Of a DNA stretch of 64,000 bases, positions 3,300-31,920 are shown one piece after another. Source of the DNA: an uncultured Eubacteriales bacterium (GTDB taxonomy: Bacteria > Bacillota_I > Bacilli_A > RF39 > UBA660). The position numbers and the translations under genes are program-made. The notes below the pieces were generated by a model. It made no database searches. It worked only from the letters and a program-made list of their open reading frames with translations, and was not told the origin of the DNA. The DNA lies in assembly GCA_963536495.1 (NCBI GenBank), contig CAUTAF010000002.1:74032-138031 (forward strand), in the 5' to 3' direction. The number at the start of each line of letters is the position of its first letter. Position 1 is the first letter of the stretch.

Positions 3300-3336
3300 A
3301 TATCTCTAAAAAAAATAGAGATATTTTTTATTTTAC
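3300..3336. terminator. bidirectional rho-independent terminator between convergent genes
   Basis: Hairpin ATATCTCTA-(A7)-TAGAGATAT flanked by an A-run and a T-run. Confidence 0.6.
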
Positions 3337-3777
3337 TTTCTTATATCCACTTGATAATAAATTCTTTTCAGTTGCTCTCAAATCAATGTATTTAGCATCT
3401 GCTCTATCAATTAATCCTCTTTTTGCTAATTCTTTAAAATTAGATTTTTTATAATTGACTTCTACTTTTAAGATTAATAATTTCTTATCAGTATATTCAA
3501 ATGAATATTTTACACCTTCAACATTATATGTAGCATCAAAGTTTTGTTTTAATGCTTTTCTTGCATCTTCTACACTAATTTCAGCTGCTTTTTTATCATT
3601 AGAATAATCTATTTTAGTATCAGCAGTATATTTAATTAACTTGTTACCTCTAGCAGTTAAAACTACGCTTGAATTAACTTTAGAATTACTTAAACTATAT
3701 TTATATTGTTTTGGTCCTAAACAAGCAGTTAATGAAAATGCAAATAATAAAATTAATCCTAAATATATCTTTTTCAT
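3328..3777 (-). CDS. lipoprotein, unknown function
   Basis: Signal peptide with lipobox LTAC (MKKIYLGLILLFAFSLTAC). Confidence 0.55.
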   Translation of the reverse strand: MKKIYLGLILLFAFSLTACLGPKQYKYSLSNSKVNSSVVLTARGNKLIKYTADTKIDYSNDKKAAEISVEDARKALKQNFDATYNVEGVKYSFEYTDKKLLILKVEVNYKKSNFKELAKRGLIDRADAKYIDLRATEKNLLSSGYKKVK

Positions 3778-16257: not shown

Positions 16258-16719
16258 ATGAAAATATATAAAAGAGGTATTTTATCTTTGTTATATAGTT
16301 TAGTTCTTGCTCTTATAGGAATACTATTTATTAATTATATTGTATATTGGTTAATAACTGAAAAAGCACCTGATTATATTTGGATATTTTATATAGTCCT
16401 TACTTTAAGTAGTTTATTTATGTTATATTCTTCTATATTTAAAGAAAACATAAGACTAGAAATAGAAAATAAATATTTAAAATATTATGAGAACAATAAA
16501 CTAACAGAAGAAATAGATTTATCTAAAGTATTTTATGGTTATAAAATAGTTGATAACTCTGTTATTGATTTATATTTTTACGAAAAAGATGAAGATACTA
16601 AAAAGATTTTAGATTGTGCACCTTTAGGTGTTAATAAATTTTATAAATTAATTGAAGATATAAAAAAAGAAACTAAAAATAAAGATTTTATAGAAGAAGC
16701 AAAAATTATAAAAAAATAA
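16258..16719 (+). CDS. hypothetical membrane protein
   Basis: Two N-terminal TM helices. Confidence 0.4.
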   Translation: MKIYKRGILSLLYSLVLALIGILFINYIVYWLITEKAPDYIWIFYIVLTLSSLFMLYSSIFKENIRLEIENKYLKYYENNKLTEEIDLSKVFYGYKIVDNSVIDLYFYEKDEDTKKILDCAPLGVNKFYKLIEDIKKETKNKDFIEEAKIIKK

Positions 16720-16731
16720 AGGAGATAAAAA

Positions 16732-17166
16732 ATGAACATTTTTATTATAGTTGGTATTATTGCAATAATGATTGCAGTAACTATTTTAAACATAATATAT
16801 TTAAAAAAAGGGAAAGAAGAAGATAAAAAATTTATGGAAGAAAATCCCGATATTTCAACAATAGAAGTATATTCTTCTAGCCATATAGTTAGTAGTAATA
16901 CAACTATTTATACAGTTGATGAAAAAATTCCACACTATTCAAAATCAAGTTTTAAAGGATTTGTTTTTATAGAAGAAGGTGAACATATACTTTCAGTAGG
17001 TGCAAGTTTTACAAGACCAGGAATTATGTATAAATCAGTAACTACAGATATTGGTCCAACTGATATAAAAGTTAAAATAGAAAAAAAGAAAAAATATATT
17101 TTAAAATATAACAAAAAAGAAGGTTTTTTTCTTGAAGAAATTGAAAAAAAACCTCTAAATAAGTAG
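16732..17166 (+). CDS. hypothetical membrane-anchored protein
   Basis: N-terminal TM helix; RBS GGAG upstream. Confidence 0.4.
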   Translation: MNIFIIVGIIAIMIAVTILNIIYLKKGKEEDKKFMEENPDISTIEVYSSSHIVSSNTTIYTVDEKIPHYSKSSFKGFVFIEEGEHILSVGASFTRPGIMYKSVTTDIGPTDIKVKIEKKKKYILKYNKKEGFFLEEIEKKPLNK

Positions 17167-17183
17167 ACATCATAAAAAATAGT

Positions 17184-17215
17184 AAATACACCTCATTTCG
17201 GAAGTGTATTTTTTA
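17184..17215 (+). terminator. rho-independent terminator
   Basis: AAATACAC-loop-GTGTATTT followed by TTTTT. Confidence 0.55.
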
Positions 17216-17480
17216 TGTCAGAAAAGAATAAACAATTATGTTTATCCACTATTATTAATATATATAATAGATATGTTATAACTTAGAAAATATCTAAATT
17301 TAATAATAATTAATTAGTAATTGATACATTAAACCATACAATAGCAAAAGAAATAGATGTAGATGATTAATCATTCATAGTAATCAAGACTTTAAATATA
17401 TATATTTACAAGAATATATTCAAGTTATATAAGAATAGATATTATTTTACAATACCATTAAATTAAAGTTAAAAATTAAG

Positions 17481-17510
17481 AAAAAGAGAAAAATAAATTT
17501 TCTCTTTTTT
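17481..17510 (-). terminator. rho-independent terminator ending the long minus-strand operon (downstream of the ABC-F gene)
   Basis: AAGAGAAAA-ATAAATT-TTTCTCTT with flanking A-run and T-run. Confidence 0.55.
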
Positions 17511-17560
17511 ATATAGTATTTTTTTATGATATCTACCGATTGTGATTCACATCATTTTCC

Positions 17561-19234
17561 CTAATACTTTTTTGTTTTTTTATATAACTTTTTTTCTTCT
17601 TTTTCAGCAGTTTTAGCTATTGTTTCTTTATATGAATCGTAATTACCAATATATTCTTTTATTTTACCATCTTCAAATACTATTACTTTATTTGCATATT
17701 TATTTATAAAAAATCTATCATGGCTTACAAAAATTAACGTTCCCCCAAAATCATCTAGTGCTTCTTCAAAAACTTCTTTAGTTGGAATATCTATATGATT
17801 AGTTGGTTCATCAAATATTAATGTATTAACTTCTTGTTGTAATAATTCAGCTAATTTAAGTCTCATTCTTTCCCCACCAGATAAATTTTTTAATTTTTTA
17901 TTAATAGTATCACCTTTAAACTTAAATCTTGATAGAATACTACGACTCTTTTCTTCTGGTAATCCTACTGATCTTGAAAAATATTCATATAAAGTTTTAT
18001 TTTCGTCTTCAAATTCAATAACTTGAGGTATATACCCTATTTTAACACTAGGTCCAATATAAATACTTCCACTACTTTCTAAACTTTGATTTCCCATAAT
18101 AGTCTTAACAAACGTTGATTTACCAGAACCATTTTCTCCAATTATAGCAACTTTATCTCCAGAGATAATTTCTAAATTAACATCATCTAATATAATATCT
18201 TTTTCTGGCGTAAAAACCGATAATTTATCTGCTACAATAATTCTGTTTGAAGATTTTCTTTTTTCATTAAAGGACATATTTATTTTCTTTTGTTCTAAAG
18301 GTTTTTTAATTGCTTCCAAACGCATTTTTTGTGCTCTTTCCCATAGATTCTTTCCTTGTCTTGTTAAAGAAGAACTATTTTTTGCCATTCCGGCTTGCAT
18401 AAATTGTTTTGCTTTTAGTTCTAATTGTTTAATACTTTCTTGTTCATCACCATATTGTGCTAATCTTTTTTGATACATTTCCTCACTAAGTTTTAAATAT
18501 CCCGAATAATTTGTAGCATATACTCTTCCAATCCCATCATCATCAATAGTTAAAACTTTATTAACCATTTTATCTAAAAAATATCTATCATGAGAAACTA
18601 TAACAGATGCACCCTTGAATGATTTTATATATTCTTCTAACCATTCAATTCTATTAATATCAAGATGGTTAGTTGGTTCGTCTAATATTAATAAGTCAGG
18701 TTTTAATAAAAGTATTTTTGCTAATTGAACAATAGTTTTTTCTCCTCCAGATAAATTTTTATATAACTCTTTTTTTATATTTTTATCAAGTTTCAAACCA
18801 TTTGTTACTGTACTAATTCTACTTTCAATTTCATATCCACCTAATAAGTTAAATTTTTCAATTAATGCACAATATTTTTCTAATTCTTTTTCGTTATAAT
18901 CTTCACTAATCTTTTTTTCATAAATTTTAATTTGTCTTTCAAGTTCATTTATTTCACTAAAAGCATCTTTTAAAACTTCATACACTGTTTTATCATTATC
19001 TATATTTACTATGCCTTGATCTAAATAACCAACTTTAGCTCCTTTTTTAATATTAATAGAACCAGTATCAGTTGATTCAAGACCCATAATTAATTTTAGT
19101 ATTGTAGATTTTCCACAACCATTAGGTCCAATTATTGCTATTGATTCTCCTTCGTTAAGAGAAAAAGAAACATCTTCAAATAAATGATTATATCCAAAGT
19201 TTTTTGATATTTTATTCACATCTAATAATAACAA
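17561..19234 (-). CDS. ABC-F family ATPase (tandem NBDs, no TMD), EttA/ARE-like
   Basis: Two Walker A motifs (GPNGCGKST, GENGSGKST), two signature motifs (LSGGEKT, LSGGERMR), inter-domain linker, size about 557 aa. Confidence 0.85.
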   Translation of the reverse strand: MLLLDVNKISKNFGYNHLFEDVSFSLNEGESIAIIGPNGCGKSTILKLIMGLESTDTGSINIKKGAKVGYLDQGIVNIDNDKTVYEVLKDAFSEINELERQIKIYEKKISEDYNEKELEKYCALIEKFNLLGGYEIESRISTVTNGLKLDKNIKKELYKNLSGGEKTIVQLAKILLLKPDLLILDEPTNHLDINRIEWLEEYIKSFKGASVIVSHDRYFLDKMVNKVLTIDDDGIGRVYATNYSGYLKLSEEMYQKRLAQYGDEQESIKQLELKAKQFMQAGMAKNSSSLTRQGKNLWERAQKMRLEAIKKPLEQKKINMSFNEKRKSSNRIIVADKLSVFTPEKDIILDDVNLEIISGDKVAIIGENGSGKSTFVKTIMGNQSLESSGSIYIGPSVKIGYIPQVIEFEDENKTLYEYFSRSVGLPEEKSRSILSRFKFKGDTINKKLKNLSGGERMRLKLAELLQQEVNTLIFDEPTNHIDIPTKEVFEEALDDFGGTLIFVSHDRFFINKYANKVIVFEDGKIKEYIGNYDSYKETIAKTAEKEEKKLYKKTKKY

Positions 19235-19301
19235 AATATAACACCTTCTTTCTAATTGTCATTTATTCTAACATTTTATAAGTTAAAATAAAACAATTTT
19301 T

Positions 19302-20102
19302 TTATAAAAACAATTCCGTTAATAAAATATAATACTCTATAACTTCATAATTTGGTTTAATTTCTAATCTTTCAAACAACATTTTTTCTGCTTCTGGTGT
19401 TTCATAATTTCTTCTCAATGATTTAACTAGTATTGCTATATCATACCAATAATCAGATACTCCTGCATCTCCCATATCAATAAATCCAGTTATTTTATCA
19501 TTTTCAAAAAAAATATTAGGTAAACTTAAATCTCCATGAGAAAAACATAGTTTTTCTGTTTTTGGTTTATGATTAATTAAATATTCATACGCTTTTTGGG
19601 GAGTACCAAATTTTTTGGTATTTTTTTCTTCCATTGTTGTTATTAAATTATTTTCTATATTATATTTAGCAATTGCTAATTTTATATCTAAAGTATTATA
19701 TATTAAGCATGTACTAATATCTAAGCTTTGTAAGATTTTAAGTGCTTTTGCTGCTAAATTAACAACATATTTCATATCATCAAAAATATCATCATCACAA
19801 ATCATTTTTCCTTTTAATTTTTCTGTTAGCATTATAGATTTATTTTTATCATATGAAAAATAAATTACCTTCGGAACTAAACCAGTATCCTTCAAATAAT
19901 TATAAATATAATATTCTTTATCCAAGTTATTTTCTTTAGATTCTTTAATAAAAAACACTTCATTATTTTTATTTGTTATTTCACTTACTTTATTACCAGA
20001 ACAACCTATTTCAATATCTTTTACAATAGATTTTTCTAATATTTTTTTTATAAATTTATCCATTATTTTTTTCTCCTCATTATTAACTCTTTTGCTGAAC
20101 AA
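19302..20102 (-). CDS. aminoglycoside/antibiotic phosphotransferase-like kinase (APH family)
   Basis: FSHGDLSLPNIFFENDKITGFIDMGDAGVSDYWYDIAIL closely follows the APH(3') catalytic-loop and DFG-like region. Confidence 0.65.
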   Translation of the reverse strand: MFSKRVNNEEKKIMDKFIKKILEKSIVKDIEIGCSGNKVSEITNKNNEVFFIKESKENNLDKEYYIYNYLKDTGLVPKVIYFSYDKNKSIMLTEKLKGKMICDDDIFDDMKYVVNLAAKALKILQSLDISTCLIYNTLDIKLAIAKYNIENNLITTMEEKNTKKFGTPQKAYEYLINHKPKTEKLCFSHGDLSLPNIFFENDKITGFIDMGDAGVSDYWYDIAILVKSLRRNYETPEAEKMLFERLEIKPNYEVIEYYILLTELFL

Positions 20103-20917
20103 GACTCACTACATATATTATTATCAATACCATGTCCAATTACAATACCTTGATTTTCTTCTTCATAATGAAAATCAGATCCAACACTTTCTAAAAGATT
20201 TAACTTTTTTGCTATTTCTTTATAAAATATAAAATCATCTTTAGTAAATGAAGAATGACAACTTTCAATTCCAATCAATCCTATTTTTTTTAAACTATCA
20301 ATAAGTTTAAAGATATTTTGTTTATCTATTTTTATTTTATTTGGATGAGCTATTATAGCAATACCTCCACTATCTATAATAAGTTTAATCGCTTTTTTAA
20401 TATCAATTTCATAACCAGGATATTCTGAATTATATTCTTGTATTTCTTTCGCTATATCTTGTGCTCTACTAAAACTATAATTATTTTTTATCAACAATCT
20501 TCTTATTTGCTCATCTATAAGCATATAATTATTTAAGTCTACTTGTTCTTTTATATAAGATGGAACATCTATTTTTTTGCAAGATATTTTATCTAAAGTT
20601 TCTATATGTCCCTTTTTTAGAACTTCTTTCATTCTAGATAATTCTTCGTTAAGTTCTTTATTATTTGAATCATAATCATACCCCAACAAATGAATACAAA
20701 TATTTTGATTCAAAAAATTATATTTTGTAGACAATTCTATTCCTTTTACGATTACAATATTGCTTTCAGATAAAATTTCATTAGATGGTATAATTATATC
20801 ATGATCAGTTATACTTAAAAAATCAACATTATTTTCTTTAGCTTTTTTTATTAAATTTTCAACTGATTCTGCACCATCGCTATATGTTGAGTGTACATGC
20901 ATATCTATATATTTCAT
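20063..20917 (-). CDS. PHP-domain phosphoesterase
   Basis: MHVHSTYSDG...ITDHD metal-binding motifs; overlaps the kinase gene by 40 nt. Confidence 0.65.
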   Translation of the reverse strand: MKYIDMHVHSTYSDGAESVENLIKKAKENNVDFLSITDHDIIIPSNEILSESNIVIVKGIELSTKYNFLNQNICIHLLGYDYDSNNKELNEELSRMKEVLKKGHIETLDKISCKKIDVPSYIKEQVDLNNYMLIDEQIRRLLIKNNYSFSRAQDIAKEIQEYNSEYPGYEIDIKKAIKLIIDSGGIAIIAHPNKIKIDKQNIFKLIDSLKKIGLIGIESCHSSFTKDDFIFYKEIAKKLNLLESVGSDFHYEEENQGIVIGHGIDNNICSESCSAKELIMRRKK

Positions 20918-20918
20918 A

Positions 20919-22388
20919 TTAAAGCTCCATTAATTCAATTATAACATTCATTAATATTTTCATTTTTTCAATTAATTCTAAATAATATGAAGAAAATGTT
21001 ATTCTTCCAACAATTTTTTCTGAATCTAATACTCCACAAGCAGTACCTGGAATAAATTTAATTTTACTATGTTTAAAAAGTTCAATTAAAAGATCATTAT
21101 CACTTTTAATTATATTTTCATTTATTTTCTTACTCTTTAATTTAGAAAAATCAATTAAAGCAAAGAAACCAGAAATTGGAATTATACCATTATAAAATGA
21201 TAAGATATTATTCCCTTTTTTATAATATTTTATTTCATCAATAGTTAAATTATTTTCAATGATTTTTCTATCTTTATTTGGTATAGTCAAAGCGCCAAGA
21301 ATAAAATATTTAAGTATTGATAAATTTAATTCATATTGTTTGTTAATATCAACTAAATATTTTTTTCTATAATTAGCTTTCATATAATTATCAGTAAAAA
21401 CAGAAGCTAATGCTATTTGGCTAAGCATAGAAACAGAATCTTGATCTAAAAATATATTATCTCTAATATCTTGAATAAAATATTTATTAGCTACAATAAA
21501 TCCAGCTCTTAATGATGCTAAAGAATAAGATTTAGATATACCAAAAAATGAAATAACATTATCTTTATACTCATCAAATGAATTTAAAGAAAAAGAACTA
21601 TATTCACTATCATAAACAGAATCTCTATAAATTAAATCTTCTATTATTAAAACCTTTTGTTTATAACATAATTTAGCTAATTCATGCAAATATTTTTTAT
21701 CTTTATAACTATAAGAAATACCTAAAGGATTATTTGGATTTTGAAAATATATAGCTGCTACCTTAGGAATATACTCATCTTTTTTATGAATTAAAAATAG
21801 TTTTTTATTAATATCAATTATTTGTTTTTCGAGGTTTTCTAAATTAATTTTCCAATTTAAATTTTGATCAAATTTAACCAATTCAATATTAGAGCCTAAT
21901 TTAAGCGGCTCATACAAAAATAAATTATATGTAGGCACTGGTATTAAAATAACATCATTTTTTCTTAAAACTGTTTTTAATATTAAAGAATATGCTTGGG
22001 TGGTAGATGAAGTTATAATTATTTCTTCTTCATTTCTAGATTTTATTCCAATTGAATTTAAATATCCAATTAAATTTTTTTTCACTTTAGAATCTCCTAT
22101 AGTATTTGGATATTGATTGGTATTATTTTCTTTTAAATAATAATCAATATCCTTTTTAACAAATTCATATTGTTTCCATTTTAATGGATTACCTCCACCA
22201 AAACTGATTACTTTTTCATCTTTTAGATATTTATAAATATCATATCTATATACATTAGAAGATTTTATTATTTTTTTTAAGTCTTCACTTAAATAATCAA
22301 AATTAATATTAATATTAGGACAATAATTTTCTTTTAACAAATATGATTTTCTTTTTAATAAATCATTCAACACAAAATCATTTTTCAT
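20919..22388 (-). CDS. PLP-dependent aminotransferase, class I/II fold, with N-terminal extension
   Basis: SKSYSLASLRAGF (PLP Lys, Arg), NPNNPLG. Confidence 0.65.
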   Translation of the reverse strand: MKNDFVLNDLLKRKSYLLKENYCPNININFDYLSEDLKKIIKSSNVYRYDIYKYLKDEKVISFGGGNPLKWKQYEFVKKDIDYYLKENNTNQYPNTIGDSKVKKNLIGYLNSIGIKSRNEEEIIITSSTTQAYSLILKTVLRKNDVILIPVPTYNLFLYEPLKLGSNIELVKFDQNLNWKINLENLEKQIIDINKKLFLIHKKDEYIPKVAAIYFQNPNNPLGISYSYKDKKYLHELAKLCYKQKVLIIEDLIYRDSVYDSEYSSFSLNSFDEYKDNVISFFGISKSYSLASLRAGFIVANKYFIQDIRDNIFLDQDSVSMLSQIALASVFTDNYMKANYRKKYLVDINKQYELNLSILKYFILGALTIPNKDRKIIENNLTIDEIKYYKKGNNILSFYNGIIPISGFFALIDFSKLKSKKINENIIKSDNDLLIELFKHSKIKFIPGTACGVLDSEKIVGRITFSSYYLELIEKMKILMNVIIELMEL

Positions 22389-23256
22389 AATATACCTCGT
22401 TTATATAATTAATTATTTTTTTATAATCTTTTATTTTTTTATCCATTCTAAAATATAATGTTTTATATCTTAACTTTTCTATATTAGAAAAAGAAGCATT
22501 TTTACAAAAAATTTCAAAAGGTAATTTTTCTATTGTAGTTTGTAAAATATCACTGTTATTCTCTTCCATATATTTATATAGTTTATCCTCTAATACAGAA
22601 AAACTTTCTTTATCAATATCAATTACAAATACTACTCTATGATAAGAAAAATTATCACAATCAATTAATCTGCCAGGAATCATTAAATTATCTTTTATAT
22701 ATTTATATTTTTTCTTTTTTTTTAAATAATTGAATCTATAAAAAAATATTTTTAAAAATAATCTTATTTTATCTATTGAGTTTATTTTAATTTTTGTTTT
22801 TAAATCTTTTTTAGAATATAAATAAGAATATTTTCCAAATGAAATTGGTTTTCTATTATTAAAAGAATAAATTATATAATCATATATTCCATAGTTATTT
22901 TTAATACCACTTTGACAAGAATCCAATATTTTAATAATCTTAGTTTTACTTTTGCTATAATAAATTTTATTATCAATAACAATATTTCCATATTGTTCAA
23001 CAAAAACTATTATTTTTGTTTTAAAAGAAATTTTTTTATTTATTTCTTTTTTATCTATCAAAAAATTATCATCTATATCAACAAATATTGGAATCAATCC
23101 GTTGCTTATAATAGTTTCAATTACACTTTCACATAACGTAACTGGAACTATTACTTCACTCCCTTTTTCAAAATTTAAATTTTTAAAAATTATATCAAAT
23201 GAATTAGTTCCACTTAATGCTATATTTTTAATAAAATTTTTCATTTTTATCTCCAT
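22378..23256 (-). CDS. divergent DegT/DnrJ/EryC1-like protein
   Basis: SGTNSFDII...GSEVIVP...PIFVDID and DSCQSG...SFNNRKPISFG resemble the DegT layout but are degenerate. The likely start is an internal Met (MKNFIKN) rather than the longest-ORF start at 23337. Confidence 0.4.
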   Translation of the reverse strand: MEIKMKNFIKNIALSGTNSFDIIFKNLNFEKGSEVIVPVTLCESVIETIISNGLIPIFVDIDDNFLIDKKEINKKISFKTKIIVFVEQYGNIVIDNKIYYSKSKTKIIKILDSCQSGIKNNYGIYDYIIYSFNNRKPISFGKYSYLYSKKDLKTKIKINSIDKIRLFLKIFFYRFNYLKKKKKYKYIKDNLMIPGRLIDCDNFSYHRVVFVIDIDKESFSVLEDKLYKYMEENNSDILQTTIEKLPFEIFCKNASFSNIEKLRYKTLYFRMDKKIKDYKKIINYINEVYYEK

Positions 23257-24190
23257 AATCATATAATTCTTCATATAAACTATGTTTTTTATTTTTTTCA
23301 TAATAAAAATTAAAATATAATTCTTGGTAAGAACCAAATGATAAATTCCAATTTTCTATTTCTTGAAAAACAGACCCTTCAAAATCTAAATATTTAGATA
23401 TATTATTTTTTTTCAAATATTTAATTAACTCAAAATATAATTTAGGAATAGGCGATGCATAATTTTTATTATAATAACTATACATTATATAACAATTAAT
23501 TTTATCCCAAACTACACAAATTCCACCAATTACTTTATTTTTATAAACAGCTATAAAACATTCACCTTTTTTATTTTCAATTGCTTTTTCAATATATTTC
23601 TTAACAAATTTTTCACTTGTTTTAGGACCATAATTATATTCCCATTTTAATGATTCTTGAAAATCATATAATGATATATCACCACTTTTAATATTAATTT
23701 CTGATATGCTTTTTATATCTCTTTTTCTATCTCTACAAAAAGAAGAAAATATACTATCAAGAGAATCAGATAAATTTATTTTATATGTATATCTGACTTC
23801 TGGAACAAAACCATTTTTTACACATGAAATTATATCTTTAATATACGGATCAAAAGAAAAAGAAATCGAATTATAATATTTTTTTAAATATTTTAGCATT
23901 TTATTTAGAACTTCCCTAGTATATAATAATTTTTTACGATTAGACGAAAAATTAAAAAGCAATACTGGTCCACCATATGGAATATACATAGTAGATTGTT
24001 CTAATGATTTATTTTTTTCAAACAGAGGAAAAAAAGCAACAAGCTTTTTATTATCATACACACATAATAATCTTTTAACTTTTTTTAATTTCAAAAAGAA
24101 TTCATAAGCAAAAGCTGTACCATTTAATGAATTGTCTACTAAAAAATCAATGTTATTTATATCACTTAGTTTATTAATCTTTACTTCCAT
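23228..24190 (-). CDS. FemAB/Acetyltransf_6-like (GNAT-fold) acyl- or aminoacyl-transferase
   Basis: C-terminal GNAT-like core (CFIAVYKNKVIGGICVV...YLDFEGS); paralogous to the next gene. Confidence 0.4.
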   Translation of the reverse strand: MEVKINKLSDINNIDFLVDNSLNGTAFAYEFFLKLKKVKRLLCVYDNKKLVAFFPLFEKNKSLEQSTMYIPYGGPVLLFNFSSNRKKLLYTREVLNKMLKYLKKYYNSISFSFDPYIKDIISCVKNGFVPEVRYTYKINLSDSLDSIFSSFCRDRKRDIKSISEINIKSGDISLYDFQESLKWEYNYGPKTSEKFVKKYIEKAIENKKGECFIAVYKNKVIGGICVVWDKINCYIMYSYYNKNYASPIPKLYFELIKYLKKNNISKYLDFEGSVFQEIENWNLSFGSYQELYFNFYYEKNKKHSLYEELYDYGDKNEKFY

Positions 24191-24986
24191 TTTTTATTAT
24201 TTCAAAATATACTCTTTTTATGCTATTTGTTTTTAGCAAATCATATATTTGATTATTCCTTCCAAATAAATCTATATTTAAAGTTTCTTCATCAGAAATT
24301 TTTTCTATTTGATGAAGTAACGCTATTATTCCTGCATTATTTTTTCTTCCTATATCAGTAGCTCCCCATTTTGATGCATAATAAATATTATCATATTTAT
24401 ATAACAATGAATAAGCTATTGGACTATTTTCAATATAAACTACTGTAATATAAGAAAATTTTTTTAAAGATAATAAAGAAATATGTTCGTAATACATATT
24501 AAGCATATCTGTTTTTTCTTTTCTCTTCCAACTATTTTGATCTATATATAAAATATCTTTCCAAAGTTCTAAAACATTATCTTCACTATCAACAATATTA
24601 AGTCTTTCAGATAATTTTTTACATTTTTTTATTAATCTTTTACAATTTTTACTTCTAGAAGATATATAATCTTTATAGTTTCCTTTTGTTATTTTTATAA
24701 ATGGTGCTTCCCATTCACAATTAATTTTAAGATTATATTTTGAATTTAAATAACTAAATACTTTTGAATTTTTATTAATATTTCTAAATTTTATAGCATA
24801 ATTTTTATTTATTTTATTTATTAAAAAAACATCATTTTCATTTAAATGAAAATCAAAATATTGAAAGCAATTTTTACCATCATAATATCTAATTATATCT
24901 ATATTATCAGATGAAGAAATATTTCTAACTGGAAAACGATAATATAAAGAAAGTCTATAGTTTTTATCGCTAGTAAAATTATACAT
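24174..24986 (-). CDS. FemAB/Acetyltransf_6-like transferase
   Basis: ITVVYIENSPIAYSLLYKYDNIYYASKWGAT...IDLFGRN pattern. Confidence 0.4.
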   Translation of the reverse strand: MYNFTSDKNYRLSLYYRFPVRNISSSDNIDIIRYYDGKNCFQYFDFHLNENDVFLINKINKNYAIKFRNINKNSKVFSYLNSKYNLKINCEWEAPFIKITKGNYKDYISSRSKNCKRLIKKCKKLSERLNIVDSEDNVLELWKDILYIDQNSWKRKEKTDMLNMYYEHISLLSLKKFSYITVVYIENSPIAYSLLYKYDNIYYASKWGATDIGRKNNAGIIALLHQIEKISDEETLNIDLFGRNNQIYDLLKTNSIKRVYFEIIKNGSKD

Positions 24987-26145
24987 TTTTATAATTCTCC
25001 AAATTTTGTTTTATATACTTTAAATCATTTTTACTTAGTTTAGAATTCAAATTTAACCAAGCAGTTCTTTGTAATAAATTTAAACTTTTATTACAATTAA
25101 CAACTTTATAATTATTATATGGATAATTATTTTTATATGGAGATAGTGAATTTATAAAAGTATTATAAGACGGTAAATAATTAGATATTTTTTTATGAAA
25201 TTCAATATTATTTTTATTCATATAAGAGATAAAATTATCGCATTCTTCTTCGTTATCAAAAGTTAATGATAAACTCAAATACACTGCTTGAATATCTTTT
25301 ATTTCTTTTCTAATATTATATCCAGTTAATTTGTTAGTTAAAACATTATAAATATATTTTTGTCTTTTAACTATTTTTTGATACTTATCTAATTGACCAT
25401 CTAAAATAGCACTTTCTAAATCTGTTATTTTTAAATTTTCACCATAAGAAATATATTTTTTATTCCACACTGGCATTTGATTGAATTCTCTTTCTCCACC
25501 ATTATCTGCAAAACGTTTTGCTACATTCATATTTTTTTTTGTAGTAAAACCTCCTCCTTCTCCGCAAGTAATTATTTTAGAAGACTGAAAACTAAATGCA
25601 CTACTATCACCAAAAGTTCCAGTATATTTATTCTTATATTTTGTTCCAAAAGATTGAGCTACATCTTCTATCAATATTAAATTATATTTTTTACAAAGCA
25701 TCATTATTTTTTCCATATCACATGGAAAACCTTGAAAATGCACAACTACTATAGCTTTTGTTTTTTTAGTTATCTTTTTTTCTATATCATTAACATCAAT
25801 ATTAAACGTATTATCTATTTCAGCAAAAACAGGAATTGCACCAACGTTTAAACATGCTGTAGCAGTAGCTATAAAAGATAAACATGGGACAATTATTTCA
25901 TCACCGTACCCAATATTATTAGAAATTAAAGCTAATTTTAACGCTGAAGTTCCATTGTTAACTAATAAGAAGTCTTGAGAAAACATTAAACTTAATCTTT
26001 TTTCAACTTTATCTGTTTTATACTGCATATTTACACCATCATACCTAAATAGACTTTTGCTATTTAACATAGATAATACCAAAATTTTTTCTTTAAAACC
26101 TATATAGTTCAAACCATAAAAAGCATCTGTACATATTTTTCTCAT
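24979..26145 (-). CDS. DegT/DnrJ/EryC1/StrS family PLP-dependent sugar aminotransferase or dehydratase
   Basis: GTSALKLAL, GDEIIVP, IPVFAEID, FSFQSSKIITCGEGG (PLP lysine). Confidence 0.8.
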   Translation of the reverse strand: MRKICTDAFYGLNYIGFKEKILVLSMLNSKSLFRYDGVNMQYKTDKVEKRLSLMFSQDFLLVNNGTSALKLALISNNIGYGDEIIVPCLSFIATATACLNVGAIPVFAEIDNTFNIDVNDIEKKITKKTKAIVVVHFQGFPCDMEKIMMLCKKYNLILIEDVAQSFGTKYKNKYTGTFGDSSAFSFQSSKIITCGEGGGFTTKKNMNVAKRFADNGGEREFNQMPVWNKKYISYGENLKITDLESAILDGQLDKYQKIVKRQKYIYNVLTNKLTGYNIRKEIKDIQAVYLSLSLTFDNEEECDNFISYMNKNNIEFHKKISNYLPSYNTFINSLSPYKNNYPYNNYKVVNCNKSLNLLQRTAWLNLNSKLSKNDLKYIKQNLENYKNV

Positions 26146-26148
26146 TTG

Positions 26149-27252
26149 TTAGTTCCTTTCAAAATCTTTAATTATTTCATTTATTCCATTCTTATTTATA
26201 TTTTTATAGAATTTTTTTCTTAAATCAAAATTATCTTCTTTATATTCAAAAAATTTTTTTATTTCTTTATTAAAATTTTTATAATCATATTTTTTCAAAT
26301 TCTCTAAAACTAATTTTATTCCCAAGCTTTCTTCTAAATAATATTTTATTTTTTTACATTTATTATTTTCTTGAAAGAAAAAATCTAAATTAAATTTTTT
26401 AAATTCTAATCTTTGCAAATATTGACTGTAATTAATAGGTAATAAAAATAACACCTTTATATTAGTTGATATTATTTCATTAAAATTACCTAGACCAGGA
26501 GACATAATTGCATAACTAGATTTTTTAATTATTTTTCTATATAAATTATTATCAAAACTATCTATAACAATATTATTATCAAATTTGATATTTTGTTTTA
26601 AGTAATTAATTATAAAATTTCCACCTGCAATATATACTTTTTCAAAATTTTTAATATAAGAATTTTTAAGAATAAAATTAACAGTTTTTAGATAAAAATT
26701 ATTGATAAAAGAGGAATCATACATATATGATTCTGCTCCACCTAAAGATATTAATAAATTATTTTTTTTACTATTATCTATAAATTTTTCTATTTTTCTT
26801 AATGATCCAACTTTTATTATATTAGACATATTTTTTGCTATTCTATTAATATTTTTATCACAAGATATTACATTAGAAATATAATATCTTTTTAAATTTA
26901 TCAACTCTTTTTCTATAAAGTCCCACATCCAAAAAATATTATCAATTAAATATAAATTAGATAAATGATATTTATTTATTAAAAAAATCAAAATATCAGT
27001 TGTTTCAATAGAAATAATTTTATCTGCTGTAAGAAAATACTTCTTATATTTTTCAAATTTTTTTATGTCATAATCATATGCTATTAATTTATCAAAAACA
27101 TTTTCTTTATTCGCTTTTTCTATGCACAATTTTGGACCAATAAAAATAAATTCATATTTATTTTTGTTCATTTTTGTTACTAAATGTATCGCTGTATTAA
27201 TAGGTCCATATCCAAATGCATCTGCTAATATTAAGATTTTATTTTTTTTCAT
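26149..27252 (-). CDS. putative GT-B fold glycosyltransferase or hydrolase (GT28/PseG-like)
   Basis: N-terminal ILILADAFGYGPINTAIHL pattern reminiscent of MurG/PseG; weak. Confidence 0.3.
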   Translation of the reverse strand: MKKNKILILADAFGYGPINTAIHLVTKMNKNKYEFIFIGPKLCIEKANKENVFDKLIAYDYDIKKFEKYKKYFLTADKIISIETTDILIFLINKYHLSNLYLIDNIFWMWDFIEKELINLKRYYISNVISCDKNINRIAKNMSNIIKVGSLRKIEKFIDNSKKNNLLISLGGAESYMYDSSFINNFYLKTVNFILKNSYIKNFEKVYIAGGNFIINYLKQNIKFDNNIVIDSFDNNLYRKIIKKSSYAIMSPGLGNFNEIISTNIKVLFLLPINYSQYLQRLEFKKFNLDFFFQENNKCKKIKYYLEESLGIKLVLENLKKYDYKNFNKEIKKFFEYKEDNFDLRKKFYKNINKNGINEIIKDFERN

Positions 27253-28246
27253 ATATTTTTTTGTTCATGTAAACGTTAGCATTATCACATTTGCTTTTGC
27301 ATTTACTACATTCTATCTCAAGTTCTTTTAATAACATACTATATTTTTTATTGCCAATAATTTGATTTAAAGGATTATCTATAAGATTACCAATAGCATA
27401 ATAATCTTCGTCTCTATGAACTGAACAATCACATGGATAAACATTTCCACTTACACAATCAATAAACAATGTATATTTTAATATCTTACAAGGTATTTTT
27501 TCTTTTCTGTAATCATCTCCATTATCAGAATATAAATTTTCTTCAAAATAATTAATATCGTCATATAGTAATTCAATATTATATTTTTTTATATTTTGTT
27601 TATATTTTTTTATATTTTTATTGTAATATTCAATTTGTTTTTTAGAAAAATAATATTCTGGACATTCTTTAATTATTATTGGATTTAAATAATCATACTC
27701 TACTGTTTTTTTCATTTCAATAAATTTTCCAAAATCATCAATGTTTTCAAAATTCAATACATGATTAATAACTATTTTAACATTTGGCAATTCATTTTTA
27801 ATTAAATTAATAGCTTTAGTTGCTATATCAAATATCCCTTTCACCCCTCTAATAGAATCATGAATTTCTGATTTAAAACTATCTATAGAAAAGAAAATAG
27901 CTTTAATATTATATTTTTTTAATTTTTTAATGTTAGATTTCGTTAAAAAAAAACCATTTGTAATAAAAACTATATTTAAACCTAATAAAGTTGCATATTC
28001 AAAATATTCATATATTTTTTTATTCGCTAAAGGCTCTCCTCCTCCAGTAAAATGAATATATTTACCACCATTGTTTTTAACATCCTTTAAAATTTCCTTT
28101 ACATCTAACTTTGATTCTTTCTCTTTTTTTTCATGTATATCACAAAATTTACATTTAGCATTACAAATATTAGAAATAGAAAGAAAATAATAGAGTGGAT
28201 TTTGACTGGTATTTTCTAATAAATCATTAAATAATTTATAATACAT
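27239..28246 (-). CDS. radical SAM enzyme with C-terminal SPASM/twitch-like cysteine cluster
   Basis: CNAKCKFC (Cx3Cx2C) and GGGEPL at the N-terminus; C-terminal CKILKY..CVSGNVYPCDC...CSKCKSKC. Confidence 0.75.
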   Translation of the reverse strand: MYYKLFNDLLENTSQNPLYYFLSISNICNAKCKFCDIHEKKEKESKLDVKEILKDVKNNGGKYIHFTGGGEPLANKKIYEYFEYATLLGLNIVFITNGFFLTKSNIKKLKKYNIKAIFFSIDSFKSEIHDSIRGVKGIFDIATKAINLIKNELPNVKIVINHVLNFENIDDFGKFIEMKKTVEYDYLNPIIIKECPEYYFSKKQIEYYNKNIKKYKQNIKKYNIELLYDDINYFEENLYSDNGDDYRKEKIPCKILKYTLFIDCVSGNVYPCDCSVHRDEDYYAIGNLIDNPLNQIIGNKKYSMLLKELEIECSKCKSKCDNANVYMNKKIYEKK

Positions 28247-28691
28247 TTAATACCTCCTTAATTTTATTCATTATAAGATTGATAGTATTATCTGATATTA
28301 AATCTTCATAATATACAAATTCACATTCAGTTAACTCTTTTAATCCCATTATCATAGGACTATACTCTAAGTTTTTATCTAAAAAAACTATCATCTTCTT
28401 TTTTTGATTACTTGCCCATCCAATTTCAACATGAACTCCTCCACTAATTGGGTTACCTGGTATTGCTAAAAATAAATCACATTCACTTATAGCTTTAGTA
28501 TCAGCTATAATACTTTCAGAAGGGCTAATATATTTTTCTCCCCACTCTTCCCTTTCTTGACTACAAAAATAATCTAAATTATTTTCTTTAAAAAAATTAA
28601 TTATTTTTTCAAAAAACCAACGATTTTCTAAAATAATATCTGAATCTTCTTCACAAAATTGTGAAAATGGAGATGCAAAAAATATTTTCAT
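28236..28691 (-). CDS. nucleoside 2-deoxyribosyltransferase superfamily protein (NDT/BlsM/MilB-like)
   Basis: IFFASPFS...DLFLAIPGNPISGGVHVEIGWA follows the NDT-family layout. Confidence 0.55.
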   Translation of the reverse strand: MKIFFASPFSQFCEEDSDIILENRWFFEKIINFFKENNLDYFCSQEREEWGEKYISPSESIIADTKAISECDLFLAIPGNPISGGVHVEIGWASNQKKKMIVFLDKNLEYSPMIMGLKELTECEFVYYEDLISDNTINLIMNKIKEVLNVL

Positions 28692-28692
28692 A

Positions 28693-30009
28693 TTATTTAT
28701 TTCCTTTCATTTCATCAAATTCTTTTTTGATATATTTATTTGTTCTATATATTTTTTCTTCTCTTATTTTTTTTATTTTTTCTACTCCAAAATATTCTTC
28801 CATTTGAATAATCATATTATGAACATCAGCTATTTCTTCAATAACATTTGGTAAAAGTTTATTATTATAGTCTTCTCTTTTATATTTACAAAGCGCTTGT
28901 ATTAATTCTCCCATTTCTTCTATAAGAACATTACTTTGACAATCAAATCCCCAAAAATCAATATAGAATTTTAAAAGAGCATTTGTTTCATTATCAGTTA
29001 AAGTTAAATCTTTTTTAATTAGTTCATAAATTCTAGTAGCTTCATCAAATTCTATTTGACCAACTTTATTATTATTAAATTTTTTTACATACTCTTTATA
29101 TCTACGTACTATTTCTTTTTTAGCATGTTTTTCGGCTATAGAAATATTTAAAATTCCACTTTCTATTTCGTTAATAAAAAATTCAATAATAGATTTTTTA
29201 TCTTGATCACAATCTGGAACTAATGTTTTTAACAATAAAAATGTTTCTTTGTCTCTTTCATCAATACATCTAAGCTCAGCATATTTTTGTAAATATTCAT
29301 AATCTATACAATCATTACCTCTAACATCACACATTGCCATAGACGCAGATAAGTTTATAGGATTATTAATTGAAAGTGTCGGTACTAAAAATGTTTCAAT
29401 TTTTCTATAAGAAGAAATTTTTTTATTTTTATTTTCATAAGCTATTTGCGATATACATGTAGCAAATTTTCCCGAGTTAGCTCCTGGACCAACTACAAAT
29501 ACTAATTTTTCTTTACACGGTATATATTCGTTTTTAAATATTCCATCTTTTGAAAAAACTTCTTTTATATTATAAGGATAGTTTGAATCTTCAAACTGTT
29601 TATATACATTATAACCTAAGTTTTTTAGCTTTTTTATATAATTATCTATTTTAGAATTTTTTCTATATCTCGTAATTGAAATATTAAATTTTATATTATC
29701 TTTAACAAAAACATTTATTAATCTTAACACTTCATCCATATATGACTTACAATTATCTTTTCTTTTTTTATTTTTTATAATTGATATTGAATTAATACAT
29801 ATTATCATCTCAAAATCAACATTTAAACTTTTTATTATTTCATATTTATTATCCGGATTATAACCTACAAAAACTCTAGCTGCATGTTGATCATCAATTA
29901 TTTTTCCACCAACTTCAATATATATTCTTTCTTTAATATCGTTTATAATTTCTAATATTTTTTCTTTTTCTTTTAAAAAATATTTTTTATTATCAAAATT
30001 TTTTTTCAT
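28693..30009 (-). CDS. two-domain protein: N-terminal P-loop-like region plus C-terminal MazG-like NTP pyrophosphohydrolase domain
   Basis: VVGPGANSGKF (GxxxxGK); C-terminal EEMGELIQAL...EEIADVHNMI, an EExxE pair typical of MazG; first gene of the operon with AAGGAA RBS. Confidence 0.5.
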   Translation of the reverse strand: MKKNFDNKKYFLKEKEKILEIINDIKERIYIEVGGKIIDDQHAARVFVGYNPDNKYEIIKSLNVDFEMIICINSISIIKNKKRKDNCKSYMDEVLRLINVFVKDNIKFNISITRYRKNSKIDNYIKKLKNLGYNVYKQFEDSNYPYNIKEVFSKDGIFKNEYIPCKEKLVFVVGPGANSGKFATCISQIAYENKNKKISSYRKIETFLVPTLSINNPINLSASMAMCDVRGNDCIDYEYLQKYAELRCIDERDKETFLLLKTLVPDCDQDKKSIIEFFINEIESGILNISIAEKHAKKEIVRRYKEYVKKFNNNKVGQIEFDEATRIYELIKKDLTLTDNETNALLKFYIDFWGFDCQSNVLIEEMGELIQALCKYKREDYNNKLLPNVIEEIADVHNMIIQMEEYFGVEKIKKIREEKIYRTNKYIKKEFDEMKGNK

Positions 30010-30035
30010 AATCCATAAGTTTCCTTCTTTGTTTC

Positions 30036-30080
30036 ATAATATACCATTTTTATATATAAAAATCACTATTTTTTATATAT
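30036..30080 (-). promoter_or_regulatory. putative sigma-A promoter of the cluster operon (extended -10 TGgTATATT)
   Basis: Minus-strand TGGTATATT about 30 nt upstream of the start codon (complement of plus 30038-30046); the -35 element is weak. Confidence 0.3.
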
Positions 30081-30199
30081 AATTTATTTTTTTAATAAAA
30101 AAAGCAATATTTTTATATAAAAATATATATTTTTTCATTTTTCTAAAAAAGATAAATTCAATTTAGAATATCATCTCAAGGTAGTGAGGCATTATTTTT

Positions 30200-30331
30200 A
30201 TGATAAAAGATTTTGATATAGAGTTGAAAAACAAAATTGTTTTTGAATATTTTAATAACAAAGATTGGATTAGGTTGTTAGCTAAAAAATATAGTATTTC
30301 ATATAATACAATTCAAAATTGAATTGATAAA
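30200..30331 (+). pseudogene. IS3-family transposase OrfA N-terminal (HTH) fragment
   Basis: MIKDFDIELKNKIVFEYFNNKDWIRLLAKKYSISYNTIQN-TGA-IDKK matches the IS3 OrfA HTH (...ISxxTIxxW). The conserved Trp position is a TGA codon and the ORF ends after 4 more codons. Confidence 0.5.
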
Positions 30332-30413
30332 AAATAAAACAAAGTAATCAAATAAACTATATATAATACATGAGACAGAAAAAAAGAACGATCTTTATCT
30401 AGAAGAATTAGAA

Positions 30414-30446
30414 ACAAAAAAACTTCCAAATTGGAAGTTTTTTATT
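30414..30446. terminator. bidirectional terminator downstream of lysS
   Basis: AACTTCCAA-TT-TGGAAGTT with A-run and T-run flanks. Confidence 0.6.
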
Positions 30447-30450: not shown

Positions 30451-31920
30451 TTATTTTTCTGGTCTCATAAGTGGAAACATTACTACATCTTTTATATTAT
30501 CTGCGTTTGTCAAAAGTTGAACCATTCTATCTATTCCAAGTCCCCATCCAGATATTGGAGGCATACCATATTCCATAGCTGAAATATAATCATAATCCAT
30601 ATCCATAGCTTCTTCATCACCCTCATTTTTAAGTTTAAGTTGATTAAGAAGTTTTTCTTCTTGTTCTATTGGATCAACTAACTCAGAATAAGCATTAACA
30701 ACTTCTGCTCCATTTATTACTAATTGAAATCTATCAGCAATTTGCTTATTATCATCATTTGCTCTTGCAAGTGGAGATAAACTAATTGGATGTTCAGTTA
30801 AATATATTGGCCCAACAATATGAGGTCTTGCAACTTTCTTATATAGATAATCTATTAAATTACCATAACCTAGATTTTCTATTGGAGTATCACTATCTAA
30901 CTCAATATTATCTTCTTTTATTTTAGCTAATAATTTTTCTTTTGTATCATAAACATTTATATCAATATTTGAATATTTCATTACTAAATCTCTAAATGAA
31001 TAAGTTGGCCATTCTCCAGAAAAATCTATTTCTTTACCATCTATTGTTAAAGTTAAAGTACCAAATATTTTTTGTATTATATGTTGTAGAAGTTCTCTAA
31101 TAAACTTCATATTATCTTTATAATTAAAATATGCTTGATAAACTTCCATCATAGTAAAATCTTGTAAGTGAGTAGCATCCATTCCTTCATTTCTAAAGCA
31201 TCTTGCTATTTCATAAACTTTATTAATACCAGCTACTACTGCTCTTTTTAAATACATTTCTGGTGCTATTCTTAAATAAACATCAATATCAAGCGCATTG
31301 TGATGAGATAAAAATGGTCTTGCTGCAGCTCCAGAATTAGCTGTTGTTAATATAGGAGTTTCTATTTCATAATAACCATGACTATCTAAATAATTTCTTA
31401 CTTCTCTAATAAATAAGAAACGTGTTTTAAATCTATCTCTTGTTTCTTCATTAGTAATCAAATCTACATATCTTTGACGATATTTAAGTTCTTGATCACT
31501 TAAACCTAAAAATTTTTCTGGTAGTGGTTTTAAAGCTTTACCTAAAAATTTAAAGCTATTTGCCCTTAAAGTTTTTTCTCCTGTATGAGTTGTGAATATC
31601 TCTCCTTCTACACCTATAAAATCTCCAATATCTATAAATTTATTAAAAAAGTTATATTCTTCTTCACCTAATAAATCTTTTTTAAAAGATATTTGAAAAT
31701 CAGAATCAATATCTCTTAATTTTAAGAAACTAAGTTTACCCATATTTCTAACAAATACTATTCTACCAGCTACTTTAACACCAGTAGTACCATCTTCTAA
31801 AACAGAAGCTTCTTTTAAACTATGTGTTACTTCATATCTATCAGGATAAGCTTGTCTATTTTTTCTTATTTCATCTAATTTTTCTCTTCTAATAATTTCT
31901 TGTTCTGAAAATGTTCTCAT
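30451..31920 (-). CDS. lysS: lysine--tRNA ligase (class II)
   Basis: Class II aaRS motifs; anticodon-binding OB N-terminus; conserved GIGIDR. Confidence 0.95.
   Translation of the reverse strand: MRTFSEQEIIRREKLDEIRKNRQAYPDRYEVTHSLKEASVLEDGTTGVKVAGRIVFVRNMGKLSFLKLRDIDSDFQISFKKDLLGEEEYNFFNKFIDIGDFIGVEGEIFTTHTGEKTLRANSFKFLGKALKPLPEKFLGLSDQELKYRQRYVDLITNEETRDRFKTRFLFIREVRNYLDSHGYYEIETPILTTANSGAAARPFLSHHNALDIDVYLRIAPEMYLKRAVVAGINKVYEIARCFRNEGMDATHLQDFTMMEVYQAYFNYKDNMKFIRELLQHIIQKIFGTLTLTIDGKEIDFSGEWPTYSFRDLVMKYSNIDINVYDTKEKLLAKIKEDNIELDSDTPIENLGYGNLIDYLYKKVARPHIVGPIYLTEHPISLSPLARANDDNKQIADRFQLVINGAEVVNAYSELVDPIEQEEKLLNQLKLKNEGDEEAMDMDYDYISAMEYGMPPISGWGLGIDRMVQLLTNADNIKDVVMFPLMRPEK

Follow-up and report, generated by a model that had tools for sequence, protein, structure and literature searches.

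A variably present twelve-gene island from uncultured gut Bacilli that probably directs the synthesis of a peptidyl-cytosine nucleoside

Twelve tightly packed genes lie between lysS (30451-31920) and prfB (15045-15983) in a 64,000-nucleotide (nt) stretch of contig CAUTAF010000002.1 (hereafter, the window), from an uncultured Eubacteriales bacterium. Our analyses indicate that they form an accessory island, which is probably a biosynthetic cluster for a nucleoside antibiotic of the blasticidin S, mildiomycin and gougerotin class. The twelve open reading frames (ORFs) all occupy the minus strand, from 30009 to 17561. Neighbouring genes overlap by up to 17 nt or lie up to 3 nt apart, except that 67 nt separate the ABC-F gene from the APH-like gene. 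An earlier reading of the locus from its letters (the sequence-only reading) had described such a co-directional run between prfB and lysS, closed by a terminator hairpin, and the ORFs, the junction distances and the hairpin bear it out. The genes, named G1 to G12 from 30009 downwards, and the hairpin are:

28693-30009, minus strand: G1, DUF1846 N-terminal domain (PF08903, 238 bits) with a tail of about 100 amino acids that is weakly MazG-like (all-alpha nucleoside triphosphate pyrophosphohydrolase-like)
28236-28691, minus strand: G2, predicted cytidine monophosphate (CMP) N-glycosidase of the MilB/BlsM/BcmB subfamily (profile search against PDB; weak nucleoside deoxyribosyltransferase (NDT)-like match in Pfam)
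27239-28246, minus strand: G3, radical SAM/SPASM protein, BlsE-like (Pfam Radical_SAM 94 bits, SPASM 29.5 bits)
26149-27252, minus strand: G4, GT-B glycosyltransferase (GT), GT1-like and of small-molecule type, proposed as a cytosine glycosyltransferase (confident structure model)
24979-26145, minus strand: G5, DegT/DnrJ/EryC1 sugar aminotransferase (PF01041, 239 bits; pyridoxal phosphate (PLP) lysine in an SFQSSK motif)
24174-24986, minus strand: G6, FemAB-like GNAT protein (Acetyltransf_6, PF13480, 24.3 bits, cut-off 22; FemAB_like E 0.08)
23228-24190, minus strand: G7, tandem-GNAT protein, predicted from its fold only as a Fem-type aminoacyl-tRNA-dependent peptide synthase (AlphaFold2 (AF2) pLDDT 89.6)
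22378-23244, minus strand: G8, shortened DegT-like PLP protein (PF01041, 55.6 bits, profile positions 47-179 only)
20919-22388, minus strand: G9, protein of 489 amino acids with a class I/II PLP aminotransferase fold, proposed for side-chain tailoring (PF00155, 96 bits)
20063-20917, minus strand: G10, PHP-family phosphoesterase (PF02811, 35.9 bits)
19302-20063, minus strand: G11, APH-family kinase, APH(3')-like (PF01636, 63 bits, cut-off 23)
17561-19234, minus strand: G12, ABC-F ATPase, ribosomal-protection-like (NF000355, 449.9 bits, cut-off 380)
17481-17510, minus strand: AT-rich hairpin followed by a T-run, likely a terminator, directly downstream of the ABC-F gene (read from the sequence)

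Most family calls of the sequence-only reading were recovered with Pfam and NCBIfam: NDT-like (weakly), Radical_SAM with SPASM, DegT, Acetyltransf_6, a shortened DegT, Aminotran_1_2, PHP, APH and ABC-F. Its GT-B-like call for G4 is upheld by the confident GT-B, GT1-like model of this protein, which has no match in Pfam. G1, in contrast, had been taken for a MazG fusion and is mainly a DUF1846_N protein. The starts of two genes were improved from a near-identical contig (L090), placing that of G8 at 23244 (288 amino acids) and that of G11 at 20063. The hairpin at 17481-17510 is omitted by the terminator scanner because its stem has fewer than three G-C pairs. Rfam and tRNA scans of the window were both negative, which leaves the region upstream of the cluster with no annotated riboswitch or leader; promoter scans gave matches at chance level.

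Shared strand is by itself weak evidence for a unit, because nearly all genes in the window lie on the minus strand anyway (roughly 50 of 58 ORFs, with a negative GC skew throughout). The twelve genes are a real unit because the cassette is kept elsewhere and is missing from the same site in close relatives. The limits of the island and the features at its ends are:

About 17152-30379, no strand: accessory island of 13.2 kb, comprising twelve genes and the 5' and 3' non-coding ends (BLASTN against empty-site contigs)
30380-30419, minus strand: left copy of a direct repeat, reproducing in degenerate form the 3' end of the small gene 16732-17166 (31/40 nt equal to 17113-17151)
17113-17151, minus strand: right repeat copy, which is the true 3' end of small gene 16732-17166 (alignment with empty sites)
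17184-17211, minus strand: second terminator-like hairpin, with 11 pairs and a T-run after them, at the right limit of the island and immediately ahead of the junction repeat (one found in the scan vs 0.0 expected)
30200-30322, plus strand: ORF of 40 amino acids, taken earlier for an IS3-type transposase fragment (helix-turn-helix remnant), a claim unsupported by Pfam (no match at E ≤ 0.01)

A metagenome search for LysS relatives retrieved five contigs from sister lineages, with LysS 92-97% identical, which show the order lysS-sm2-sm1-prfB and none of the twelve cluster genes. In BLASTN comparisons with three empty-site contigs (L091, L093 and L096), the window is homologous from 34000 to 30380 and again from 17151 to 13001, at 85-91% nucleotide identity, with nothing in between. 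The sister lineages thus join lysS directly to the genes beside prfB, and the island therefore corresponds to window positions of about 17152 to 30379. The genes for the ABC-F, APH and PHP proteins fall inside these limits, and all twelve genes are absent jointly at the empty site. The near-identical contig L090, whose G7 relative is 99% identical, carries lysS followed by the complete cluster. The copies of the junction repeat (40 nt) agree imperfectly, at 31/40 positions; the local score is 23, compared with 8.5 ± 2.3 for the null. The space between prfB and the island is occupied by two small genes on the plus strand (16258-16719 and 16732-17166), hydrophobic in their products and without a Pfam match, and both are also present at the empty site of the sister lineages. 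The hairpin at 17184-17211 may have diverged from a copy of the lysS terminator (30417-30443).

Presence or absence at a conserved site and junction repeats, as expected of a genomic island, are thus both seen here, whereas composition does not deviate. The window is extremely AT-rich (GC content 23% overall, and about 9% at third codon positions, GC3), and the earlier claim that the cluster is even more AT-rich than its flanks failed: per gene, GC is 0.216 in the cluster and 0.231 in the flanks (p = 0.13), and the corresponding GC3 values are 0.099 and 0.091 (p = 0.15). Most likely, the island was acquired at, or is at least variably present at, the lysS/prfB locus, the direction of gain or loss resting on the junction repeat and on parsimony. 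The proposal of the sequence-only reading that an island lies between prfB and lysS is borne out directly by these empty sites.

The distribution of the cluster was evaluated in a context survey of 80 loci, with one genome per species, and by inspecting individually the neighbourhoods of radical SAM homologues. The latter are proteins of about 335 amino acids, with 106 matches at E ≤ 5e-54 and 39-65% identity among those aligned; no relative from the genome collection came nearer than 61% in the radical SAM protein. The cluster is carried by about 35 species-level genomes, nearly all of them metagenome-assembled genomes of uncultured 'Bacilli', 'Tenericutes' or 'Erysipelotrichaceae', with hosts given in the record titles as rabbit, goat and human gut. 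Two gene orders occur. Type A is the order of the window, from G1 to G12, and is found in L001, L004-6, L010 and L011, with a radical SAM identity of 55-65% and different flanking genes; type B runs LysR, PHP, G2, G3, G4, G5, G6, G7, methyltransferase, G8, ABC-F and APH. The ABC-F and APH genes occur in nearly every gut-Bacilli locus that reaches far enough (G11 in nearly every one extending beyond G8), and PHP in the loci that cover its position. Since the ABC-F and APH genes travel with the cluster in two gene orders, they belong to it. Likewise, G2, G3, G4 and G5 are neighbours in every locus covering them; in Paenibacillus, G3, G4 and G5 stand together with G2 close by.

Two cultured species, Paenibacillus faecalis (L003, 7900-20100) and Paenibacillus periandrae (L031, 6000-21000), have only this four-gene core in common with the island. 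Their other tailoring genes encode an arginase-family enzyme, a class-III aminotransferase, a GNAT protein, a CPT-like kinase, PPDK-like proteins and an Exo_endo_phos phosphatase, and these loci, in hosts that are tractable, may represent a cluster resembling those for gougerotin or bagougeramine. Among the type-A loci, the human-gut contig L005 contains, at 1506-3696 and about 6 kb upstream of the cluster, a weak bAvd match and an RVT_1 reverse transcriptase that resemble the pair of a diversity-generating retroelement, and L004 has a DDE transposase in the corresponding place.

The evidence on what the cluster makes comes mainly from the core quartet G2 to G5. A profile of G2 homologues matches BcmB (4jen, 2.9e-42), MilB (4jem, 6e-35) and BlsM (5vto, 8e-35) in PDB over the full length, and canonical nucleoside deoxyribosyltransferases reach 1e-5 at best; the motif HVE(I/L)GWAS, in the catalytic region of the G2 family, is invariant. 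For G3, the best PDB match is BlsE (7vob, annotated as cytosylglucuronate decarboxylase), with 3.4e-15 for the single sequence and 3.5e-21 for the profile, followed by SkfB, BtrN and viperins. Eight cysteines are invariant in the G3 family, CxxxCxxC among them, and a C-terminal motif (y-x-C-x-C-x-x-H-R) aligns weakly with BlsE, in a second stretch of 3.0 bits.

The model of G4 is slightly closer to small-molecule GTs than to polysaccharide GTs. An exhaustive profile search gathered 824 representatives of its family at E ≤ 1e-3, essentially unannotated. Among the best 150 of these 824 we found eight fusions of a CMP-glycosidase to a GT (P0346, P0377, P0385, P0391, P0408, P0409, P0412 and P0415) and two of a GT to a DegT protein (P0296 and P0314/P0436), one of the latter annotated from Candidatus Rhabdochlamydia sp. 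T3358. Both kinds of fusion tie G2, G4 and G5 into one pathway. In turn, G5 matches sugar aminotransferases in PDB at 1e-42, and fits the DegT-type role of MilD, BlsH and GouH at the family level only. Together, G2 to G5 appear to mirror the MilB/MilC/MilG/MilD set that provides mildiomycin and blasticidin S with their cytosine nucleoside skeleton.

Downstream of the core lie candidates for the attachment and tailoring of a side chain. The best Foldseek matches of G7 are Sba18/Sbb17 with the amino-sugar substrate streptothrisamine (TM 0.69/0.76), and then FemX (TM 0.69); by sequence, phmmer, profile searches against PDB and Pfam gave no match, with the Pfam FemAB models below threshold. Of the two FemAB-like genes of the sequence-only reading, G7 gives a model with two GNAT domains in tandem that flank a substrate cleft, and G6 has the Acetyltransf_6 match alone, slightly above its cut-off. 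A profile-profile comparison of G6 with G7 gave no significant paralogy (E 0.27). G6 is kept in all gut-Bacilli versions of the cluster. As to the PLP proteins, G8 is missing about 40 N-terminal amino acids and has a divergent C-terminal domain, and its SFNNRK aligns with the PLP lysine of G5. The best NCBIfam match of G9, to a GntC-like model, reaches 98 bits, far under the cut-off of that model, and the gene is found mostly in type-A clusters.

The remaining genes lie at either end of the cluster. G1, which is confined to type-A clusters, has the UPF0371 proteins 7f00 and 3bh1 as PDB relatives, and we found DUF1846 still without an assigned function in the literature. Its tail scores 14.8 bits on PF03819, below the cut-off of 22, and 11.6-16.4 bits across homologues; the weak MazG match falls at the same helix in the window protein and in four of five further homologues, the fifth giving a weak PRA-PH match. 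In L037, L038 and L041 this tail exists as a separate gene of 99 amino acids. G10 obtains 125 bits on the NCBIfam model for 3',5'-nucleoside bisphosphate phosphatase (cut-off 400), and G11 narrowly misses the curated APH(3') model NF033068 (197.9 bits vs a cut-off of 205). Although G12 passes the protection-like model, it falls short of the cut-off for every named resistance class, Msr, Sal and OptrA among them; the producer-type model gives 364 bits (cut-off 800), Vga 341 (cut-off 725) and Lsa 256 (cut-off 750). The scores on the EttA and Uup models are likewise below cut-off. The sequence-only reading had noted resistance-like genes; the ABC-F and APH genes do belong to the cluster, and we infer their role in resistance. 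The families of G2, G5 and G12 and the folds of G4 and G7, as well as the linkage of the genes and the status of the island, rest on direct homology or fold evidence.

With a probability of roughly 65%, we propose that the island is a biosynthetic cluster, with self-protection, for a peptidyl-cytosine (aminohexopyranosyl) nucleoside translation inhibitor of the blasticidin S, mildiomycin and gougerotin class. Compounds of this class inhibit the peptidyl-transferase centre of the ribosome, and ABC-F proteins protect the peptidyl-transferase and exit region of the 50S subunit, not the aminoglycoside site of the 30S subunit. The strict co-inheritance of G12 with the cluster fits this target, since an ABC-F would protect precisely where the antibiotics act. 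BlsD and MilC use uridine diphosphate (UDP)-glucuronate for the glycosylation of cytosine. In gentamicin biosynthesis, GenP provides a parallel for the activation of a hydroxyl before PLP-dependent elimination.

A cytosylglucuronic acid (CGA) core is common to blasticidin S, mildiomycin, gougerotin and arginomycin (PMC5572114), and this core, together with the likeness of the quartet to the MilB/MilC/MilG/MilD set, is the basis of the pathway that we propose. In an opening step, the MazG-like tail of G1 may yield CMP from cytidine triphosphate (CTP). G2 would then hydrolyse CMP to free cytosine, as its strong homology suggests, and G4, considering its fold, its position and the gene fusions, would join the cytosine to a UDP-hexose or UDP-hexuronate. 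A radical dehydration or oxidation of the sugar by G3, of the BlsE type and suggested by distant homology, could give a 4'-keto and possibly 3'-deoxy intermediate, to be transaminated at C4' by G5 on account of its family-level homology. G6 and G7 would each attach an aminoacyl group from an aminoacyl-tRNA to the new amine, the former judging from a marginal Pfam match and the latter from its fold, and the PLP enzymes G8 and G9 might modify the sugar or the side chain. Finally, the G11 kinase and the G10 phosphoesterase may form a pair that masks the toxic product inside the cell, or else primes a hydroxyl for PLP-dependent elimination, and the ribosome of the producer would be shielded by G12. 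In this scheme we infer the substrates, the order of the steps, the identity of the sugar and the roles of G1, G8, G9, G10 and G11.

Several observations weigh against this proposal. The likeness of G3 to BlsE is distant: the BlsE model TIGR04466, although among the top NCBIfam matches, gives 77.6 bits against a cut-off of 400, and G3 scores similarly on the AhbD (79.6 bits) and pVip (73 bits) models. The names of the relatives of G4 are 'hypothetical', 'glycosyltransferase' or those of mislabelled fusions, and none of them points to a CGA synthase. No UDP-glucose dehydrogenase was found among the twelve island proteins, and none of the twelve matched a transporter family, so that no dedicated exporter is encoded. 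The DUF1846 domain, G8 and G9 have no assigned step, the model passed by G12 is a broad protection-like one and no named resistance class fits it, and the APH may be biosynthetic and not protective. Besides, the cluster has no known product and none of the gut-Bacilli carriers that we found is cultured.

The sequence-only reading had named aminoglycosides and peptidyl nucleosides as candidate products, and of the two it is the peptidyl nucleosides that the subfamily of G2, the BlsE relative and the fold of G7 favour. An aminoglycoside or aminocyclitol cluster would have the DegT enzyme, a BtrN-like radical SAM dehydrogenase and the GT make a pseudo-oligosaccharide, with an APH(3') for producer resistance as in butirosin producers. 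G11 is indeed close to the APH(3') cut-off, G5 matches the 2-deoxy-scyllo-inosose aminotransferases 2c7t and 5w71 at 5e-38, and BtrN is the third-ranked protein in the profile search with G3 (1.5e-11). However, BlsE ranks above BtrN, neither a sugar-phosphate cyclase nor a 2-deoxy-scyllo-inosose synthase was found among the twelve proteins with Pfam and NCBIfam, and a conserved CMP N-glycosidase, sometimes fused to the GT, has no role in such pathways; because an ABC-F acts on the 50S subunit and not at the 30S aminoglycoside site, G12 would also be out of place, and we regard this explanation as unlikely. The CMP N-glycosidase is equally left unexplained if the island decorates peptidoglycan or an envelope glycan, with an amino sugar made by the DegT and radical SAM enzymes, transferred by the GT and decorated by the Fem-like proteins, and the ABC-F and APH genes as mere neighbours. 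DegT, GT-B and FemABX proteins are classic cell-wall enzymes, and the NCBIfam matches of G5 are all O-antigen, enterobacterial common antigen or nonulosonate aminotransferases; yet no family of flippases, polymerases, lipid-carrier transferases or transporters occurs among the twelve proteins, and G4 is slightly nearer to small-molecule GTs than to polysaccharide GTs. Moreover, the locus is accessory and missing from some relatives, and its ABC-F and APH genes accompany the cluster in both gene orders and disappear with it at the empty site. The glycan-modification option of the sequence-only reading is thus disfavoured, and we consider it quite unlikely.

The scores of G3 on viperin models suggest yet another function, an anti-phage or nucleotide-analogue system in which a viperin-like G3 would make a chain-terminating dehydro-nucleotide from CTP with the assistance of the MazG-like and NDT-like enzymes, domains that do occur in defence contexts. 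The PADLOC pVip models give 73 and 70 bits, the NCBIfam model for prokaryotic viperins (NF038283) 66.8 bits, and viperins appear at about 4e-10 in the profile search. This NCBIfam score is, however, far under the cut-off of 180, BlsE outscores viperins for G3 (79 vs 42 bits), and G3 has a C-terminal SPASM domain with invariant cysteines, which viperins lack. In a PADLOC scan of G1 to G10 the other nine proteins matched no defence family, the pVip match of G3 reflecting the shared radical SAM core, and two or three PLP enzymes, a GT and two Fem-like ligases do not fit known viperin systems, all of which makes a defence function very unlikely. We give hardly any credence to a bacimethrin-type pathway, whether for a pyrimidine antimetabolite or for salvage, in which the CMP glycosidase would free a (modified) cytosine base for tailoring and no nucleoside antibiotic would result. 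BcmB, the best solved relative of G2, is a CMP N-glycosidase named for bacimethrin biosynthesis, but the twelve proteins include no CMP hydroxymethylase (ThyA-like), base methyltransferase or ThiD-like kinase. They do include Fem-like ligases, DegT and radical SAM enzymes and a GT that is sometimes found fused to the glycosidase.

Apart from the island, prfB shows a canonical release factor 2 programmed +1 frameshift site, CTT TGA C, at about 16073-16079 of the window (minus strand), upstream of the ORF at 15045-15983, and because of this site the listed prfB ORF (312 amino acids) is without its N-terminal segment. UGA is evidently a stop codon, as prfB is present and the ORFs are intact under table 11, so this very AT-rich genome does not use the Mycoplasma genetic code. 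A plus-strand stretch at 1442-3294 contains an ORF without a Pfam match (1442-2386) followed by a protein with Radical_SAM and Radical_SAM_C domains (2389-3294), unrelated to G3.

To our knowledge, cytosine peptidyl nucleosides such as blasticidin S, mildiomycin and gougerotin come almost only from actinomycetes; they are used as fungicides, selection agents and ribosome probes. As the class of chemistry is already known, the cluster is not categorically new, although a related but rewired pathway in uncultured gut Bacilli would bring cytosine-nucleoside chemistry to the animal gut. We found no account in the literature of such a cluster in gut Bacilli, nor of any cluster combining Fem-type ligases, DUF1846-MazG, a shortened DegT, PHP/APH and ABC-F. 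Our proposal can be extended, tentatively, to a bolder one: that uncultured gut Bacilli, among them the present lineage with 23% GC and about 35 species from human, rabbit and ruminant hosts, harbour a self-contained and mobile cluster for a translation inhibitor that would be a new peptidyl-cytosine nucleoside. The peptide of this inhibitor would be assembled by Fem-type aminoacyl-tRNA-dependent ligases, and the ABC-F of the cluster would give the blasticidin/gougerotin class its first matched ribosome-protection factor. If this were true, the G12-type ABC-F would also be a ready-made transferable resistance gene in the gut microbiome; with the kinase, it suggests a possible gut reservoir of resistance to inhibitors of the peptidyl-transferase centre. 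The cluster suggests that gut microbes fight with translation inhibitors, and could offer new enzymes: tRNA-dependent ligases that act on a nucleoside, a divergent family of cytosine glycosyltransferases and a DUF1846 domain in a defined pathway. With only 13 kb and one apparent operon, it is well suited to synthesis and heterologous expression.

Among known systems, G12 resembles the antibiotic-resistance ABC-F proteins (VmlR, Vga and Lsa, and the producer-type TlrC, CarA, OleB and SrmB) in its two ABC domains and linker (ABC_tran_Xtn), and, like the producer proteins, it sits inside an antibiotic-like cluster; it differs in being under the curated cut-off of every named class, and we know of no ABC-F tied to blasticidin-class compounds. 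Aminoacyl-tRNA-dependent peptide synthases are known from the biosynthesis of pacidamycin, dehydrophos, valanimycin and BD-12 (PMC12945691). Of these, Orf11/Sba18 (BD-12/glycylthricin) and PacB (pacidamycin) are tandem-GNAT proteins of the Fem fold whose acceptor is the amine of an amino-sugar antibiotic intermediate (PMC12945691). They provide the best structural match to G7, although their sequences have no detectable similarity to it.

A close parallel in enzyme content is mildiomycin, from Streptoverticillium rimofaciens, which has the MilB hydrolase, the CGA synthase MilC, the BlsE homologue MilG, the DegT protein MilD and the putative tRNA-dependent aminoacyltransferase MilH; the first four are proposed to build the 4'-amino pyranosyl-cytosine skeleton (PMC11784345). 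By our predictions the island has the same five enzyme types, with G4 as candidate cytosine glycosyltransferase, G3 as BlsE-like radical SAM protein and G7 as putative tRNA-dependent aminoacyltransferase. It lacks the CMP hydroxymethylase MilA, arginine-tailoring enzymes of the MilM/MilN type and the acyl carrier protein, contains two Fem-like genes instead of one, and adds DUF1846-MazG, a shortened DegT, a class I/II PLP enzyme, PHP, APH and ABC-F. The host is also different, a gut Firmicute of 23% GC and not an actinomycete, and G3 matches BlsE, the homologue of MilG, at about 79 bits.

In blasticidin S the side chain is beta-arginine, which an aminomutase produces and a ligase attaches, and the producer protects itself by leucylation, acetylation or deamination together with an exporter. 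In the island, by contrast, the predicted side-chain enzymes are of the Fem type, and protection would come from the ABC-F and the kinase. The likeness to the blasticidin S pathway of Streptomyces griseochromogenes (BlsM, BlsD, BlsE and BlsH) resides in the CMP-derived cytosine and in the radical SAM and PLP chemistry on a pyranose (PMC3715490). Of the proteins with solved structures, BlsM is one of the nearest to G2 and BlsE to G3. For gougerotin, GouA, GouF and GouH make 4-amino-CGA, and the gene roles described include no radical SAM enzyme, the peptide being attached by GouJ, an acyl-CoA-type N-acetyltransferase (PMC12835213). The island differs in having a BlsE-like radical SAM enzyme and putative ligases of the tRNA-dependent type. 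Gougerotin and the bagougeramines would share with the proposed product a 4-amino cytosyl-hexuronate skeleton that bears a dipeptide, and fusions of CMP-glycosidase to GT occur among the relatives of G4. The bagougeramines come from a Bacillus/Paenibacillus-type organism, and it is in Paenibacillus genomes that the four-gene core of the island is also found.

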